Below, one piece after another: positions 8,143-22,702 of a stretch of 64,000 bases of DNA (position 1 is its first letter; each line of letters begins with the position of its first letter). A program made the position numbers and the translations under genes. The DNA comes from a virus. Under the pieces are notes generated by a model. That model was not told the origin of the DNA, did not search any database, and saw nothing but the letters and a program-made list of their open reading frames with translations. The stretch spans positions 1 to 64,000 of the IMG/VR virus record IMGVR_UViG_3300031215_000009; one strand, written 5' to 3'.

Positions 8143-10374
8143 ATGAACGTTTTTCTAAACTTGGATAGTTCAGATTTCCTAATCGAATATAAATACTATG
8201 ATTCTGCAAGTCCAGAAATCATAACAACAACGGATGCCCCATTTTACTTTATGCAAAATGGTCACACTGATGTACCTTTGTTGATGAATGACGATGCTTC
8301 TGAAAATAAAACTAATAACACAAGAACACATTCAGTTGCACAAATTGAATCTCAATCTAAACAATTTGCATTATTAACACCTAATAAATTAGGTGCTGTA
8401 TATAATGACTATGATGCTAAATTAACAGATACTACAAGTTTACCATTAATTTTTGGAACACAAGAAGGAATAATTTACGATACTGTACGAATACATTTAA
8501 TTCAAGGATTTAGTTTTAATGACTATTTTTCTGGGATTAATTTAGATATTAAAGTTAAAGATAAATCTGGAGCTTCAATAAGTCTTTTAAGTGCTATTTA
8601 TAGAAAAGAAGATAATTTTGAAATAATGAATCCAAATCCTTTCCTTTATTCGGGAAGACAATATTCATCTTATATTGAATTTAAAGTACCATCATTAAAA
8701 TACTTAATTGACAGTTATATAGTGAAATATATACAAGGTTCAAATTCAGATATATTATCATATAAAATTTCTAATGGAAATGGATTTTATAGAAATACAC
8801 TAATTGAAATTACAGCAGGTAGATTTTCACAAACTACAAAACAAGACAACCAACTTTTCAATAAAAGACTTACTGGAGAATCAACATCTATTTCATCACA
8901 AGATGAATTTTCAGACGTTGGTGTTTTTATAAATGAAAGTTCTGAGGGTGACTATATTGAATTTTATGGAACATATCAAGGTTCAATTTTTGGTGATTAT
9001 ATGCAAAGATTGAATACAAGTGGAACAGGACAATATATAGCAATACATAAATTAATAATTACTGAACAAATACCTAATACAACAGGTCAATATCAAATTG
9101 TTGGTAATTACAATCCATTAACAAATGTACCAGATTTGAGTGACAATAGTTATTTATCAAATTTTGTTGATGGTAATTATTGGGTTGCAAAAGAAACCGG
9201 ATTTAATGTTGATATTAATCAAAATGTTAATAAAGGTAATTTTGTTGTTTATAATCCACTATTACCTGGTACTATTAAAGTTGAAGTTATTGATTCGCAA
9301 GATATTGAAAATTATAGTGACATTGCACAATTTATTAGATCTGGTGACCAAGAATTTATTCAAGATGATAAATTCGAAGAGGTTAATAATTTTAGACCAG
9401 TATTGAAATTTGGTGGTAGTGCATTATCATATAGAATAAATTATACATTACAAATTTTCAACACAAGTACAAATGCAACTATTGAAAAAATGGGTTCATT
9501 TGTAAGTTTTCAACCACAAAAATATGGTAAAGAATTGTTAAAATTAAACACAAGAGATAATATACAAATTTTTGATGTATTTAATAAGAAAATAACAAAT
9601 AATATTATAAATACTAATACACAATCAAAACCAAATGCTATTGAAAATACAAGTTTATATAGTAAAAACATAACATCATTTAAACAATCAAATTCAGTAT
9701 ATTCTGGTGTAACGGAAGTTAGTATCAATTCAAGTGGGGAAATAGTACCTAAAATAAACCCAGAATCTGTAATTAACATCAAAGGTCAAGGAACAGCAAC
9801 TGTTTATATTTCACCTTTTGATACATTTTTGCAATTTGGAATATACGAACAAATAGAAGATAAATCATTCAGAAGTATTGATTTAGATAAAGTTGGTCAA
9901 ATATTCTTAAACTTTACAAATAAGTCAGGCGAAATAATAAAAATTTCATCTACTAAGAATAAAAACGTAGATTCTTCTAAAGGTCAAGTATTATTTAGAA
10001 TCAAACCTGATTTATATAATCAAATTATAAATTCTGGAAATGATGTGTTTTATATAACATCTAAAGTAGGAATTAATAGTGCAGAAACTCCTCTATATAC
10101 TGGAAAATATAAAGATTATTCAAATATACCAGAAGATGAAACAGAAATATTAATTGGATCACAAAGACAGACTATTAATGATTTGAACGAGAGTGTTGCA
10201 GATTTAGAAAAAAGATTATTACTGAAACATACTATTGCAGGACCTACTGGGAAAGCAAAAGGAGGAACAGCAAATGATAAATCTATAAACAAAAATTCAA
10301 TGAATGTTAAAACAAGTACATTCAATCCATTTGGACCAACGAGTGGTTCTATTACAGGACCAACAAGTAATTAA
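8143..10374 (+). CDS. Virion structural protein (hypothetical)
   Basis: 743-aa beta-rich ORF with a TTAAATA box at about 8104. Confidence 0.5.
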   Translation: MNVFLNLDSSDFLIEYKYYDSASPEIITTTDAPFYFMQNGHTDVPLLMNDDASENKTNNTRTHSVAQIESQSKQFALLTPNKLGAVYNDYDAKLTDTTSLPLIFGTQEGIIYDTVRIHLIQGFSFNDYFSGINLDIKVKDKSGASISLLSAIYRKEDNFEIMNPNPFLYSGRQYSSYIEFKVPSLKYLIDSYIVKYIQGSNSDILSYKISNGNGFYRNTLIEITAGRFSQTTKQDNQLFNKRLTGESTSISSQDEFSDVGVFINESSEGDYIEFYGTYQGSIFGDYMQRLNTSGTGQYIAIHKLIITEQIPNTTGQYQIVGNYNPLTNVPDLSDNSYLSNFVDGNYWVAKETGFNVDINQNVNKGNFVVYNPLLPGTIKVEVIDSQDIENYSDIAQFIRSGDQEFIQDDKFEEVNNFRPVLKFGGSALSYRINYTLQIFNTSTNATIEKMGSFVSFQPQKYGKELLKLNTRDNIQIFDVFNKKITNNIINTNTQSKPNAIENTSLYSKNITSFKQSNSVYSGVTEVSINSSGEIVPKINPESVINIKGQGTATVYISPFDTFLQFGIYEQIEDKSFRSIDLDKVGQIFLNFTNKSGEIIKISSTKNKNVDSSKGQVLFRIKPDLYNQIINSGNDVFYITSKVGINSAETPLYTGKYKDYSNIPEDETEILIGSQRQTINDLNESVADLEKRLLLKHTIAGPTGKAKGGTANDKSINKNSMNVKTSTFNPFGPTSGSITGPTSN

Positions 10375-17465: not shown

Positions 17466-17646
17466 AAACCCCAGAAAAAACCCTAATATTAAACAAGGTG
17501 ATAGATTATTAATTGATTTTGACCAAATCAAAGCACCTAAAACTAATAAAAATGATATTAATATAGAAAGAGAAAAACTAAAAGAGGATATTAAAAAACC
17601 TACGATTAGAATTAACCCACCTAAAAAAGGTAAAAGTTTATTTTAA
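17458..17646 (+). CDS. Hypothetical protein
   Basis: 62-aa ORF tightly coupled to both neighbours. Confidence 0.5.
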   Translation: MFENPRKNPNIKQGDRLLIDFDQIKAPKTNKNDINIEREKLKEDIKKPTIRINPPKKGKSLF

Positions 17647-18120
17647 ATGAATGAAGAAAACGAAGAACTAAAACAAACTGAATTATCAACGTCTGATAAA
17701 TTAGATGTTGCGTTTGAAAAAGAACGCAAAGAAATATCTGCATATATTAAAGAAAATATTACAGATAAAATGCATAGTATTGATGAAATAGCAAATCTTC
17801 AAGTTCATTTGTTATCTCAACGACAACGATTGGTTGATAAGACTAATAGTTTAAGAGCCTCTATTAGAAAGAAAAACAAAAGTATGGCAAGGATTAGGAA
17901 ACAAAAATTTCGTTTCTATAAACTCGACTATGACGTTAAATTAAATGATTATGAAATAACAAGACATATTGATGCAGATGTAGAGGATGTAGTAAATATG
18001 GTTAAAATATTAGAAAATCAAATATTATACTACAAAGATACAACCGACACGTTAGACAAATGTACTTATATGATTAAGTACTTAATAGACGTTAAAAAGT
18101 TTATGTCAGGTAGTTTTTAA
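17647..18120 (+). CDS. uvsY: Recombination mediator UvsY-like protein
   Basis: Helical 157-aa protein with FY...Y...L...I..HIDAD, directly upstream of uvsW as in T4. Confidence 0.6.
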   Translation: MNEENEELKQTELSTSDKLDVAFEKERKEISAYIKENITDKMHSIDEIANLQVHLLSQRQRLVDKTNSLRASIRKKNKSMARIRKQKFRFYKLDYDVKLNDYEITRHIDADVEDVVNMVKILENQILYYKDTTDTLDKCTYMIKYLIDVKKFMSGSF

Positions 18121-18170
18121 CACTATTAAATACCTTATAAACACTATAAACACTATAAATACAAGTACTC

Positions 18171-19190
18171 ATGAAATTCGAGACAACTCACTCGGGTAAA
18201 ATATTAACTTTAGTTGACGCTTCTGTTTTAGAAAGAAAGCAATTAAGTTTATCTTTAACCAAAAAATTAGAATATTACAATTTCTTACCTCCAGCAGTTA
18301 AGAAAAGATGGAATGGAATTGTATCTTATTTCCACAAGGATAGATTTGTCCCTGTTGGTTTGTGGCAAGAATTAAAGTACATTGCAGAAACTTTCAAATT
18401 CCCATTAGAAATAACAGGACTTGGAGAAGCAATATTCTACAAAGATGTAACAAGAGATGAATTTCAAGATTGGGTAGATGATAAGTTTTTCGGTGCCGTT
18501 AATTCTAAAGGTGATGATTTTATTCCAAGAAAATATCAAGTTGATACTGCATACGCAATCTTAACTAATAAAATATCAGTTAGTGAATTAACAACAGCTG
18601 CAGGGAAATCTTTGATTATCTTTATTTGTATTGTTTATTTTCAAGAAACTGGTTTAGGAAAGAAATTCTTAATGATTGTACCATCTATTGATTTAGTAAT
18701 ACAAGCTTATGAAGATTTTAATGAATATAATAGTTTTTTATTAGAAGATAATAGATTTCCATTGAATATCAAACAAATTCATGGGGGAGAAAAGAAAGAC
18801 TTTATTGCATCACAAAATATACATGTTAGTACGTTTCAATCACTTGCTAAATTTCAAAATCAATACTTCACTGTATTTGATACTGTTATTGTTGATGAGT
18901 GTTTACACCCAGACAGTTTAATCAAGATGGGAGATAATACAACAAAGAAAATATCAGATGTAGTAATAGGAGATGAAGTTTGGACTACTAATGATATTAC
19001 AGGAGATTTGGAAATTAATAAAGTAGATTATATTTATAAAAATCTTTCAAGTCACGAACACTTATATGAATTGGAATTAGAGGATGGTTCGATATTAGAA
19101 CTAACAGGAAATCACAAAGTAAAACTTTCTGATAAATCTTATAAGAGAGTTGATGAATTGACAGGAAGTGAAGATATAATAACTTATTAA
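18171..19190 (+). CDS. uvsW: UvsW helicase segment 1 plus split intein N-half (Cys1 at 18900)
   Basis: PRKYQ, TAAGKS Walker A, IVPS, STFQS and VIVDE, followed by CLHPDS...LTGNHKV (intein blocks A and B). Confidence 0.92.
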   Translation: MKFETTHSGKILTLVDASVLERKQLSLSLTKKLEYYNFLPPAVKKRWNGIVSYFHKDRFVPVGLWQELKYIAETFKFPLEITGLGEAIFYKDVTRDEFQDWVDDKFFGAVNSKGDDFIPRKYQVDTAYAILTNKISVSELTTAAGKSLIIFICIVYFQETGLGKKFLMIVPSIDLVIQAYEDFNEYNSFLLEDNRFPLNIKQIHGGEKKDFIASQNIHVSTFQSLAKFQNQYFTVFDTVIVDECLHPDSLIKMGDNTTKKISDVVIGDEVWTTNDITGDLEINKVDYIYKNLSSHEHLYELELEDGSILELTGNHKVKLSDKSYKRVDELTGSEDIITY

Positions 19191-19197
19191 ATAACCT

Positions 19198-19473
19198 ATA
19201 AAAAGTTTACAAGAAATTATAAATGAACAAACAGAAGCTATTCATCAAGATACTGGGATAGAAGAAGGACAACGCAAAGATGTTGATGAAAAAGTAGAAA
19301 AGAAGAATCAACAGAATATAGATAAGTTCAAAGGTTTAGAAGTTTACTTAAAAGAAAATGACTACAAATTCCATTTAATAGATGAAGACTATTTTAGTGT
19401 TCAAGATTATTCTTCTTTGGAAAACCAACCAAATAAAAAATTACTTAAAACCAGACTAAAAGCATTTATATGA
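19198..19473 (+). pseudogene. ATG-less open frame between the intein halves, probable endonuclease remnant
   Basis: About 90 open codons. NIDKFKGLEVYLKENDYKFHLIDEDYF resembles the end of TnsA-like PD-(D/E)xK nucleases. The stop overlaps the IntC start (ATGA). Confidence 0.45.
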
Positions 19474-20273
19474 AAATAAAGAAAATAACAAAAAAGAAAT
19501 ATAAAGGTGATGTTTATAATCTTAGAATAGATAGTGAAGATGGAAACAATCATAATTACTTTGCTAACGATATTAATGTATCGAATTGTCATAGAACTAA
19601 GTCAAACACTATTAGAGAATGTATTAGTAAGTGTGTAAATGTAGAAAGACGTTTCGGATTAACAGGAACAACTCCAAAACAAGGTACTTTAGATAGTTTA
19701 ACACTACAAGCATATCTTGGTCCCAAGGTAATAGAAGTTAAAGCAAAAGAATTACAAGACAAAGGAGATATTGCAGAAGTTGATATAGCAATTGTTGAAT
19801 TGATTTACCCTGAAGAAATTCAAAAACGATTTGATGATATTAAAAAGAGTATGACAGGTGAAGACAAAGGAAAACTTCTTAAAATAGAACAAGATTTTAT
19901 TATTAAGTACATTCCTAGAGTTGAATTAATTTCAAAAGTCATTTCTAAAGTTCAAAAAAACCAATTAGTGTTGTTTCACAGACAAGCTTATGGTAAACAA
20001 CTTAAAAAGTACTTAGAAGAAAATACAGATAAAGAAATATATTTTATTTATGGTGAAACTAAGAAAGATGATAGAGCTGAGATTAAAAGATTGATGGAAC
20101 ATGATGTTATTGAAAAGGAAATAGATGCTTTTCGATTTGATTCAGAAGGTAATAGTTATGAAATATCACACAATGAGTATATTAGATTAGTAAATGGTAA
20201 ATCTATAAAGGTGTCAAATTTAAGTGAAAATGATGATATTGATTTGAAAAGTATATCTAAATTTAAAGTTTGA
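19470..20273 (+). CDS. uvsW: Split intein C-half (39 aa) plus UvsW segment 2, ending in a degenerate Hint-like tail
   Basis: VYNL...HNYFANDINVSN|CH restores DECH. GLTGT motif III, LVLF...G and IYGETKKDDR follow. Confidence 0.9.
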   Translation: MKIKKITKKKYKGDVYNLRIDSEDGNNHNYFANDINVSNCHRTKSNTIRECISKCVNVERRFGLTGTTPKQGTLDSLTLQAYLGPKVIEVKAKELQDKGDIAEVDIAIVELIYPEEIQKRFDDIKKSMTGEDKGKLLKIEQDFIIKYIPRVELISKVISKVQKNQLVLFHRQAYGKQLKKYLEENTDKEIYFIYGETKKDDRAEIKRLMEHDVIEKEIDAFRFDSEGNSYEISHNEYIRLVNGKSIKVSNLSENDDIDLKSISKFKV

Positions 20274-20318
20274 ATCACAACTGGAGTAAATATATAAAAT
20301 ATATAAAATAGATATATT

Positions 20319-21260
20319 ATGAAAAATGATTTACTTAAATGTTTCCAAGAAAAACATGGAACTCCAGATAATGTAAATAAATTAAATGAATATGTTGATT
20401 TCCTCCTGACATATAAGTTAAATGAAACTGAATATACTGAAAATCATCATATATTAGATAGGGCATCATTCCCAGAATTTGAAAAAGAAGAATGGAATAT
20501 TATAACATTAGACTATAAAGACCATATTAAAGTACATGAAATGTTGTTTGAAGATTATAATATTAGAAGATACCAAAGAACTCTTACTTTCAAAGGAGTG
20601 AAAAAAGATTATAAGTTACTTTCTAATGCAGCAAAGAAAGGATGGACTAAATTTAAAAACAACAAAGTAAAATATGATTTATTTTGTTTACGTAGAAGTG
20701 TAATAATGAAAACACTTTCGTCAGATGAACAATCAAGAAGGGGTAAATTATTTTGGGATAATTTATCAAGTGATGAATTAGAAAAATGGAAAATGAAATG
20801 TAATAAAGGTAGAACCAACGAATCAAAAATAAAACAAAAAGAATCAATTAATATTTATTATTCTAATCCTGATAATAGGGAAAAGAAATCTAAAGAAACA
20901 AAAGACTATTGGGATTCATTAAGTGAATCTAAAAGAAATGATTTTAGAAAAAACATGAAATCTATAAATTCTAATGAAGATAAAAGAAAAGATGCAAGTG
21001 TAAAAATAAAAAATAAATGGCAAGACCCTGTTTTTCAAGAAAAAATGTCAAATAGAAAAACTAAACCAAAAAACAAATATGAATTGATATTTGAAGATGG
21101 TAATAAAGAAATAATAATTGGGTTTTCTGAAATGATAGAAAAATATAACTTAAATGCTACACTAATTAGAAAATTCTTAAATACGAAAACCAAAGTAGAA
21201 TCTAAAAGTAAACGAGAACAAGCATTAAATACAATAGGATTAATAATAAACCAAATATAA
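20319..21260 (+). CDS. Free-standing HNH homing endonuclease (Mob-type) interrupting uvsW
   Basis: ENHHIL...NIITL...DHIKVHEML followed by basic helical repeats. Confidence 0.8.
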   Translation: MKNDLLKCFQEKHGTPDNVNKLNEYVDFLLTYKLNETEYTENHHILDRASFPEFEKEEWNIITLDYKDHIKVHEMLFEDYNIRRYQRTLTFKGVKKDYKLLSNAAKKGWTKFKNNKVKYDLFCLRRSVIMKTLSSDEQSRRGKLFWDNLSSDELEKWKMKCNKGRTNESKIKQKESINIYYSNPDNREKKSKETKDYWDSLSESKRNDFRKNMKSINSNEDKRKDASVKIKNKWQDPVFQEKMSNRKTKPKNKYELIFEDGNKEIIIGFSEMIEKYNLNATLIRKFLNTKTKVESKSKREQALNTIGLIINQI

Positions 21261-21261
21261 T

Positions 21262-21604
21262 ATGGCACAAATAACAAATTTAAAACACATAAAAAAGAAA
21301 GTAGAGGCTGCAAGAGTTCTTGTAGCCTCTTATTAGGTGCGGTACGTTATCGACAGGAATTAACATAAAAAATATCCATAATATTCACTTTACTGAATCG
21401 TTTAAATCAGATGTTATTGTAAGACAGTCTATTGGTAGAGGTTTAAGACAACATAAAGATAAAGATAAATTAAGAGTTTATGATTTTGTAGATTGTCTTA
21501 ATACTGGAAAAGATAACATGTTAATGAATCATTCAAGAGTTAGACGAACAATCTACAAAGAACAACAATTTGATTATATTATCAAGAAAGTACATTTAAT
21601 TTAA
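21262..21604 (+). CDS. uvsW: UvsW C-terminal part, interrupted by 7 nt (TAGGTGC, 21334-21340); absent from the ORF track
   Basis: 21262-21333 reads MAQITNLKHIKKEVEAARVLVASY. 21341-21604 in the +1 frame reads GTLSTGINIKNIHNIHF...RQSIGRGLR...VYDFVD..., i.e. helicase motifs V and VI. Confidence 0.85.
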
Positions 21605-21694
21605 TAATGGTCTCATAGAGTTAAATACTTTATGAGACCTTTTATTTTTTATAAAGTTTTTAATTACATTAAATAATTAAAAGAAATATAGTAA

Positions 21695-22042
21695 ATGAAG
21701 AGTTTAAATGAATTTTTAAAGGAAGAGGTATCTGATAAGTTAGAAGAAAGAACTGTTCAAGTTAAAAGAAAATATGGTATTCATGATTCTATCAAAGTTG
21801 GAGCAATTGCACCAGTTAGATTAAAAATATTAGGATTTATTGCAGAAAAAGGTCATTGTACTAAAGATGAATTAAAAGAATTTATAAATTCTAAAAATGA
21901 AGATTCAGGGACAAGAACTAATATGTCTTGGTTAAGAAAAAATGCAAAATATATTACAGAATTTGAAAAAGATGGTTGTAGTTGTTGTAAACTTTCTAAA
22001 CTTGGTAAAAGAGTTATAAACAAAACAAATATCAACGATTAA
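21695..22042 (+). CDS. Small basic protein, winged-helix-like, with a capsid-targeting-like N-terminus
   Basis: Starts MKSLNEFLKEE; contains RLKILGFI...TKDEL...CKLSKLGKR. Confidence 0.5.
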   Translation: MKSLNEFLKEEVSDKLEERTVQVKRKYGIHDSIKVGAIAPVRLKILGFIAEKGHCTKDELKEFINSKNEDSGTRTNMSWLRKNAKYITEFEKDGCSCCKLSKLGKRVINKTNIND

Positions 22043-22108
22043 TAGTTTAATTCGCAATTAAATCTAATTAGGATTAAATATAGTAACTAAAAAATATAAA
22101 CATAAAAA

Positions 22109-22702
22109 ATGAAAAATTTAACAGGATTTATAAACGAGGCTCAAAAGTCTAAAAAACAAAAAGAATATCAAGATTTCTTTGATAAGAAATTAGAAAAATA
22201 TAATGTAAAATCACCTGCAGAACTTGATGATGCTGAAAAGAAAAAATTCTTTAATGAAATAGATAAAGAATGGACAGGTGAAGCTACAAACGAAAAGAAA
22301 GTAGAAGAAGATTTCGATTCTGAAGATGATGAAGATTCTGAAGACTTGAAAGATAAGAAAGATAAAGACGATAAGAAAGACAAAAAAGAAGAAGATGAGG
22401 ATGATGAAGAAGATGAGGATGATGAAGAAGATGAAGATGATGAAGAGGATGATGAAGAAGATGAAGATGAAGAAGAAGATGAGGAAAAAGTTGATGAAAG
22501 TTTAATAACAGAAAAAGAATCTAAATTTGCTAAAAAATTCAAAGGGTTAGTAGATAGTAAAGATATTGCAGGAATTAGAAACGGTGTAAAAAACGTTTTC
22601 GCTGATTTAGCAGAAGAAGGAGCAGCTAATGAAGATATTAGAGAATTTATTCAAATGTATGTTGATATTTCATTGGATCAAATCGAAGCATCTGTTGGAT
22701 AA
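22109..22702 (+). CDS. Highly acidic internal head/prohead core-type protein
   Basis: Starts MKNLTGFINE; long D/E tract encoded by GAA/GAT/GAG repeats (about 22388-22485). Confidence 0.55.
   Translation: MKNLTGFINEAQKSKKQKEYQDFFDKKLEKYNVKSPAELDDAEKKKFFNEIDKEWTGEATNEKKVEEDFDSEDDEDSEDLKDKKDKDDKKDKKEEDEDDEEDEDDEEDEDDEEDDEEDEDEEEDEEKVDESLITEKESKFAKKFKGLVDSKDIAGIRNGVKNVFADLAEEGAANEDIREFIQMYVDISLDQIEASVG

Follow-up and report, generated by a model that had tools for sequence, protein, structure and literature searches.

The 64,000-nt stretch analysed here (the window) comes from an 81-kb IMG/VR viral record that is estimated to be 26% complete and is present in salt-lake metagenome runs; its GC content is 28.3%. 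The UvsW-type helicase encoded in the window is fragmented in comparison with the intact 504-aa UvsW of LR756500. Piece 1 (18171..19190; this and all features below lie on the plus strand) encodes the N-terminal part of the helicase, which runs as far as motif II (DE), and then the N half of a Hint/intein domain. It matches the Pfam families ResIII (1.4e-13), DEAD (2e-9) and Hint (3.2e-7), and aligns with the LR756500 protein in tblastn with an E-value of 1.4e-44. Piece 2 (19470..20102) opens with the C half of the intein (ending ...VSN, then CH) and continues with the middle of the helicase to ...RLMEH, as judged from a PHROG DNA helicase match (1.3e-28), the ORF list and the alignment to LR756500. 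This first break in uvsW, at 18900-19590, is a split intein inserted in motif II between DE and CH, and about 280 nt without a long ORF separate the two intein halves.

The gene is split again between ...RLMEH and RVLVASY..., that is, between motifs IV and V, by a mobile cassette made up of a tail on the upstream piece, a Mob-like HNH gene and a leader ORF. The tail, or C-terminal extension (CTE), is a 56-codon in-frame addition to piece 2 plus the stop TGA (20103..20273). The HNH homing endonuclease gene (20319..21260, 313 aa) matches phrog_12434 (HNH endonuclease, 3.1e-15) and phrog_655 (homing endonuclease, 1.4e-5); its link to the Mob proteins runs via the HNH protein of a relative, L085, with which it shares 35-39% identity and which itself matches T4 MobE (tblastn, 7e-6). 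Pfam returned no match for the CTE or HNH proteins, and solved structures returned nothing relevant. The leader ORF (21262..21333; translation MAQITNLKHIKKKVEAARVLVASY, 24 aa) consists of an N-terminal extension (NTE), MAQITNLKHIKKKVEA, followed by the native strand (A)RVLVASY, and ends at a UAU codon (21331..21333) that is followed by a stop. A group I intron around the HNH gene was considered and rejected because neither Intron_gpI nor another relevant Rfam family matched at E<=1 in 17500-22500 or at E<=10 in 20060-20340, although Rfam models may miss intron cores that are interrupted by long ORFs.

The HNH gene ends 70 nt upstream of a second, much smaller insert. The site reads GTA GCC TCT TAT (21322-21333), TAG GTG C (21334-21340) and GGT ACG TTA TCG ACA GGA (21341-21358), so that TAGGTGC separates a Tyr from a Gly codon in helicase motif V. 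The insert is missing from nine close relatives (L005-L013, 67-84% amino acid identity) and from LR756500, which read ...VLVASY GT(L/F)STG...; the DNA of the nine, ...AAA GTT CTA GTA GCA AGT TAT GGT ACT CTT AGT ACA GGA..., has neither insert nor endonuclease. The window therefore carries exactly 7 extra nucleotides, as the original prediction, made from the sequence alone, had stated. It was right about the gap and drew no link to the homing-endonuclease cassette next to it. The frame that resumes at GGT (21341..21604; 87 codons plus the TAA at 21602-21604) encodes GTLSTGINIK...QSIGRGLR... with motifs V and VI; it has tblastn matches in 2515 phage records, annotated UvsW proteins and helicases among them, and 59% identity to LR756500. 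This +1 frame is closed upstream by a TAG at 21323-21325, and the ORF list contains no ATG, GTG or TTG ORF of at least 30 aa in it that covers motifs V and VI, which confirms the predicted lack of a usable start in a frame that stops at 21604. A terminator-like hairpin plus T-run (21609..21649) directly follows the helicase stop and is the sole terminator-like site within 20000-21800.

The sequence around the gap stands out in composition. The 60 nt at 21301-21360 have 46.7% GC, in the top 0.7% of all 60-nt segments of the window, and GCC, ACG and TCG each account for 4% of their codon families and GAG for 9%, as expected from the earlier remark that these codons are unusually GC-rich for this genome. 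The GC excess and the rare codons fit a foreign tract. Two other runs, which come from different samples, have Logan contigs that cross the site with 0 differences and 0 gaps: X2 record 12 (510 nt, 20952-21461, depth 4.5) and X3 record 16 (151 nt, 21301-21451, depth 2.1). The contigs of X1 end at 21313 and restart at 21349 and thus do not bridge the gap, and X4 has no coverage of the site. An assembly error is unlikely because contigs (not raw reads) of two other runs carry the 7 nt unchanged, with the qualification that the spanning depths are low and one run may be the source sample of the assembly. The exact 22-nt junction had 0 matches in viral contigs.

Several conventional routes to the downstream segment were rejected. 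An independent start would need an initiation codon in the +1 frame, and the GTG at 21337 is in the zero frame. Initiation at AUU (21332) would be in frame solely in those members of the family described below that have 4- or 7-nt gaps. A genetic code in which TAG is sense would leave the ribosome in the zero frame, with a stop 9 codons later (TAA 21361-21363); the long ORFs of the window are open under table 11. With a suppressor tRNA the frame would likewise stay wrong, and the window has no tRNA gene.

The same layout, consisting of a hairpin abutting UAU, a gap that begins with a stop codon and an intact helicase end of 82-97 codons, was found in 11 other distinct uvsW sequences. A narrower motif scan had already found L087, and most of the 11 came from a broad motif search (TAT, T-R-R, 0-6 nt, then a GTxSTG(I/V)(N/D)(I/V)-type motif) that returned 16 loci, 14 of them new and all in uvsW; loci with identical printed flanks were counted once, which together with the window gives 12 distinct sequences. 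Their gaps are TGAC (six sequences), TAGTGA (two), TAGAAC (one), TAGTGC (one) and TAGGTGC (two). UAG or UGA follows UAU in 12 of 12, among the TAA, TAG, TGA or TGG that the pattern admitted there. Because the pattern demanded TAT, T-R-R and the GTxSTG-type motif, the constancy of UAU plus stop and of the first nine downstream codons is partly by design. TAGGTGC is identical in the window, L087, L093 and L095, the last two being metagenome contigs with the local sequence of L087; seven of 10 metagenome pattern matches (L088-L092, L094, L096) were chance occurrences outside uvsW. The insert is rare: in a uvsW survey, 157 of the 158 loci with enough flank are uninterrupted. The lone exception, L125 (IMGVR_UViG_3300044513_001174, ~2480-2510), has TAG in place of the Tyr codon of an unsplit uvsW (...GTT GCT TCA TAG GGA ACT...), a change that may represent an error, a nonsense allele or a related gap of 3 nt.

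Scans of viral contigs with the HNH protein and an HNH alignment found a single relative, the contig of L085, whose HNH gene occupies the same place in the uvsW of another phage. After it come a leader ORF, MKPTKVKEVKGAIIIASY, and then TAT TAG TGC GGT ACA TTT TCT ACC GGG; the insert here is 6 nt long and in frame; it falls at the identical codon boundary, and the 9-bp hairpin before it keeps the register. Leaders in the other split members have 18-31 codons (MKPT.., MAKV..), with NTEs of 10-16 aa. A full HNH gene is present in the window, L085, L266 and L261 and partly in L263, a remnant in L270, and L259 and L267 are split, with tail and leader, but have no endonuclease. In L262, L264 and L268 it is replaced by an unrelated ORF of 262-281 aa, and L087 bears the gap in an unsplit gene. 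The replacement ORF in L262 (reverse strand, oriented 8634-9422), L264 and L268 is Gly/Ala/Thr-rich and has no Pfam match. The endonucleases of the gap-bearing members share 28-63% identity with one another, a divergence which indicates that the arrangement is old.

The CTE, a tail of about 50 aa, is homologous in all split members and conserved across 10 loci (the window and nine others). Used as a single query, the CTE of L085 matched itself alone; a profile matched 137 representatives (50% clustering, E<=1e-3), and the six long single-stretch hits that were checked were all N-terminal parts of UvsW-like helicases ending in the tail (ResIII/DEAD in every case, UvsW_N in four of the six). The profile also matches a stretch inside the PT-HINT/intein region of an intein-bearing GyrB (P0153), so the CTE may derive from half of a Hint module and serve to keep the split pieces together.

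L087 provides a test of the resume site in a gene without a cassette. It has TAGGTGC and the hairpin in an unsplit uvsW, and its 408 + 89 codons are colinear with the uninterrupted, 93%-identical P0001 of 497 aa, so that its length confirms resumption at GGN. Between the two proteins, 17 of 28 amino acid differences fall in residues 351-411, directly 5' of the gap, and none in the next 86 residues. Judged by its position, the cluster is the apparent footprint of a one-sided gene-conversion tract, a pattern that supports spread of the gap by co-conversion; since the 86 residues after the tract are identical to those of P0001, the insertion in L087 may be recent.

In the window the hairpin 5' of UAU (21303..21330) is AGAGGCTGCAAG-AGTT-CTTGTAGCCTCT, 12 bp with one G.U pair (G21310/T21323), its 3' arm ending at the Ser codon just before UAU. 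These features agree with the original prediction, and the hairpin has a minimum free energy of -20.6 kcal/mol (z = -3.85; 1 of 200 shuffles folds equally well). All 12 gap-bearing sequences have a hairpin of 9-12 bp whose last pair abuts UAU, with -12.7 to -19.6 kcal/mol for the 36 nt upstream; the window is an AT-rich member with the strongest hairpin. The 171 unique uninterrupted homologues average -4.9 and reach -12.1 at best. Thus none has a hairpin as strong as even the weakest gap-bearing one (Mann-Whitney p 3.7e-9, phylogeny ignored), but weaker hairpins do already occur in some relatives that have no gap.

The stem covaries, a pattern that the original prediction had proposed to look for in related uvsW genes. 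Among nine sequences in one register (eight distinct, two rows being identical), 72 of 72 cells pair, compensatory double changes occur in three of nine pairs, and 0 of 500 shuffles reach the covariation score; with the register slid as a control, only 29-47% of cells pair. The window, L261 and L267 have other arm sequences and registers with the identical 3' end. G.U pairs on the sense strand argue for a sense-strand RNA structure rather than a DNA palindrome. Within hairpin subfamilies the gap varies in length and letters, the stop always coming first: AGAGGC...GCCTCT goes with TGAC in L267 and TAGGTGC in the window, GACGCGAT with TGAC in L262-type sequences and TAGGTGC in L087, and GGGCGCAAT with TAGTGC and TAGTGA. 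The consensus fold of the 12 sequences contains this 5' hairpin only; an outer helix between a purine-rich 5' stretch and the T-F-S codons, seen in single folds of L259, L266 and L270, is absent from it and was dropped. The hairpin was also considered as a terminator and is not terminator-like. Most members have a purine-rich, Shine-Dalgarno-like stretch (GAGG, AAGGAGGT, GAGGAGG) in or just 5' of the left arm, at 21302-21307 in the window and at about -32 to -24 from UAU in L085, L087, L259, L266 and L270.

All 12 sequences keep an open helicase C-terminus with QSIGRGLR (motif VI). For the downstream segment, 18 pairs with at least 60% identity give pN of 0.08-0.31 versus pS of 0.62-0.99, and dN/dS is 0.09-0.25 in the eight computable pairs. 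The segment thus looks to be under purifying selection, and the relaxed selection that the original prediction had named as evidence against recoding was not seen. The low dN/dS need not postdate the insert, because homing can carry the cassette into hosts that had diverged beforehand. The phage of the window may also be able to do without UvsW, and both points weigh against a bypass.

Taken together, the sequence comparisons make it probable, with room for real doubt, that TAGGTGC (21334..21340) is the untranslated coding gap of a programmed short translational bypass that belongs to the Mob-like homing-endonuclease cassette. Resuming at GGN fits 12 of 12 sequences and restores exactly ...ASY-GT..., and for this reason the short bypass is favoured. 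A +1 slip could account for gaps of 4 or 7 nt but not for those of 6 nt, which exclude it as a general mechanism; readthrough fits only the 6-nt gaps other than TAG TGA and is excluded because that gap is two stops in a row. The position of the sole terminator-like site, after the stop of the downstream segment, also counts for a functional bypass. Of the two mechanisms originally proposed, a hop from UAU to UGC and a +1 slip, the comparative data (gaps of 4, 6 and 7 nt) favour the hop, and recoding stands as the best-supported reading.

In the proposed mechanism the ribosome would arrive with UAU (21331-21333) in the P site and UAG (21334-21336) in the A site, where decoding would be slow. 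The 3' arm of the hairpin, lying in the E site and exit channel, would strive to re-form, loosening the E/P-site pairing and dragging mRNA out of the ribosome. The peptidyl-tRNA(Tyr) would move 7 nt forward to UGC (21338-21340), with U-A, G.U and C-G as possible pairs, and Gly-tRNA would then read GGU to give ...RVLVASY-GTLSTG..., the exact consensus; the expected tryptic peptide is VLVASYGTLSTGINIK. A similar idea exists for gene 60, where pairing of mRNA that is leaving the ribosome has been put forward as what drives it onward. A point against such a bypass here is that only ~10-13 nt separate the hairpin loop from the P site, which leaves no room for the stem until the mRNA has moved forward somewhat. 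Three polypeptides would finally make up the helicase: the split intein would join pieces 1 and 2, and the tail and leader would hold the leader-plus-C-terminal piece in place.

Two further features of the site speak against a bypass. The take-off UAU and the landing triplet are unmatched, and a perfect UAC is present at 21343-21345, where landing would lead into the zero frame and a stop five codons later. The triplet before GGN varies among members (GAC, UGA, AAC or UGC) and always differs from a Tyr codon. The near-cognate UGC landing of the original prediction therefore cannot be generalised, and what holds throughout is resumption at GGN. With the anticodon of tRNA(Tyr), each of these triplets would appear to form no more than two Watson-Crick pairs and perhaps one G.U.

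In a rival reading, UAU-UAG is the site of a programmed +1 frameshift: tRNA(Tyr) would hold its position or slip by one base, AGG and UGC would be decoded as the following codons, and the product would be ...VASY-RC-GTLSTG... with two extra residues in motif V and the tryptic peptides VLVASYR and CGTLSTGINIK. In its favour, the window's 7 nt and the 4 nt of the TGAC relatives both amount to +1 in frame, +1 shifts are classically stimulated by a stop codon in the A site, refolding of the upstream hairpin could favour forward slips, and UGA-C resembles the prfB shift site; AGG and TGC are rare here (8% of Arg and 10% of Cys codons), which is compatible with no selection as coding sequence. However, UAU to AUU gives no re-pairing, the three 6-nt gap types would be brought into the wrong frame (and in TAG TGA readthrough would face two stops), and the variation of gap length among 4, 6 and 7 nt within one hairpin subfamily would not be tolerated by a frame-specific mechanism. 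No extra motif V residue occurs in 157 of 158 surveyed homologues, and we regard the +1 shift as quite improbable. An artefact of sequencing or assembly, or removal of the 7 nt from the RNA by a tiny intron or editing, is a very remote prospect: depth in the public runs is low (2-4.5), but two runs from different samples have the 7 nt with 0 differences, and three assemblies of another phage (L087, L093, L095) have the same 7 nt. No Rfam family, group I introns included, was found in 17500-22500 or 20060-20340, and to our knowledge 7 nt is too short for any known self-splicing element.

Unlikely, though deserving more weight than an artefact, is the reading that the insert is an immunity scar only, which shields the cassette and inactivates an untranslated C-terminal helicase segment, the hairpin serving the cassette otherwise, for instance by stabilising the transcript or regulating how the endonuclease is expressed. 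In favour of this, a split intein and a homing endonuclease have already interrupted the gene, the insertion in L087 may be a young one, homing into diverged hosts could mimic purifying selection, and some uninterrupted relatives already have a weaker hairpin. Against this, 12 of 12 sequences keep the 82-97 codon frame open and motif VI intact despite endonucleases at 28-63% identity, the hairpin abuts UAU in every one and does not resemble a terminator, the stop-first gap is retained while its length and letters change, and the transcription unit ends just after the downstream segment.

The endonuclease cassette is the key to why a gap exists at all. At the DNA level the insert would break the endonuclease's own target and, by analogy with MobA and gene 60, probably makes its carriers immune to their own enzyme. 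It may be speculated that a true UAY before GGN would rebuild TAY-GGN-AC, presumably part of the endonuclease target. A broader and more tentative proposal, to which we give slightly less than an even chance, is that the hairpin, UAU and a stop-led gap of 4-7 nt form a self-contained, portable minimal bypass module, in which an exit-side stem drags the mRNA past the stop and, no matched landing codon being needed, the ribosome goes on from the next suitable A-site codon. The module would be spread by homing endonucleases as a self-immunity device, and it could persist alone in an unsplit gene, as the sequence of L087 suggests. If this is true, the module would add one bypass family to the single one known from phages, would be the first short stop-hop found in nature, and would offer a small, tractable system for testing the model that pairing of the exiting mRNA drives bypassing.

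Some elements of the proposed bypass recall known recoding events. The prfB (RF2) frameshift, which is always +1, depends on a slippery CUU-U together with Shine-Dalgarno pairing 3 nt upstream. Both have a stop codon in the A site, which in the TGAC members precedes a C, and an upstream RNA element on the E-site/exit side. In contrast, the uvsW site has no slippery codon, UAU to AUU is without pairing, and three gap types are 6 nt long, not +1. The synthetic E. coli "stop-hops" (Weiss et al. 1987, via Atkins et al. 2016, PMC5009743) are, as described in the latter, inefficient events in which matched codons flank a stop. There too a peptidyl-tRNA leaves a codon beside a stop and decoding resumes a few nucleotides on, and in the 6-nt uvsW members 9 nt would similarly specify one amino acid; unlike in the synthetic cases, the triplets on either side do not match, and a strong hairpin has been conserved. 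According to the same review, no natural in-frame stop-hop was known, and shorter natural counterparts of gene 60 had long been presumed (Atkins et al. 2016, PMC5009743). In Aeromonas phage Aeh1, a MobE insertion splits nrdA into two tailed ORFs that are reassembled into an active enzyme (PMC2988022; 10.1101/2022.08.31.505936), as a Mob endonuclease here splits a gene into two ORFs with added tails; unlike here, the portions of these sources available report no coding gap or recoding.

The closest parallel is the T4 gene 39/mobA/gene 60 element with its 50-nt translational bypass (Manning & Atkins, 10.1101/2022.08.31.505936; Bonocora et al. 2011 cited there). According to that survey, MobA elements add a CTE and an NTE, the endonuclease has been lost or replaced in some while the bypass is retained, and MobA nicking is blocked by the bypass insert and not by nearby polymorphisms (10.1101/2022.08.31.505936). 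Both elements place a Mob-type HNH homing endonuclease between the halves of a split DNA-metabolism gene, with an in-frame CTE on the upstream ORF and an NTE leader on the downstream ORF. In both, a stop-led non-coding insert follows directly after the take-off codon, a few tens of nucleotides downstream, in a highly conserved motif, and members whose endonuclease is lost or replaced still keep the gap. The likeness is one of layout. The split gene is uvsW (an SF2 helicase) here and the Topo II large subunit (Toprim domain) there, the gap 7 nt (4-7 in relatives) against ~50 nt, and the NTE 10-16 aa against 44-45. The uvsW hairpin lies 5' of, and abuts, the take-off codon, whereas gene 60 has a stop-containing take-off stem-loop on the 3' side, and its geometry differs from that of the gene 60 5' stem-loop. 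No matched landing codon (UAU versus UGC, and GAC, AAC or UGA elsewhere) and no mini-Shine-Dalgarno sequence in the gap are present in uvsW, unlike in gene 60. The 2022 survey calls the gene 60 cassette unique (Manning & Atkins, 10.1101/2022.08.31.505936). No account of a gap or bypass in uvsW came up in our literature search, although the supplementary tables of that survey might hold related cases. In phages, efficient translational bypassing has been established for little besides T4 gene 60 and its homologues. The uvsW gap, if the bypass reading is right, would be a miniature counterpart of the gene 60 jump in a second, independent cassette. A gap in an endonuclease's own target combined with a ribosome skip would then be a general strategy of selfish endonucleases, the truncated uvsW genes reported by gene callers in many aquatic phages would be explained, and a minimal system of ~40 nt would be at hand for studying how exit-side mRNA structure moves ribosomes.
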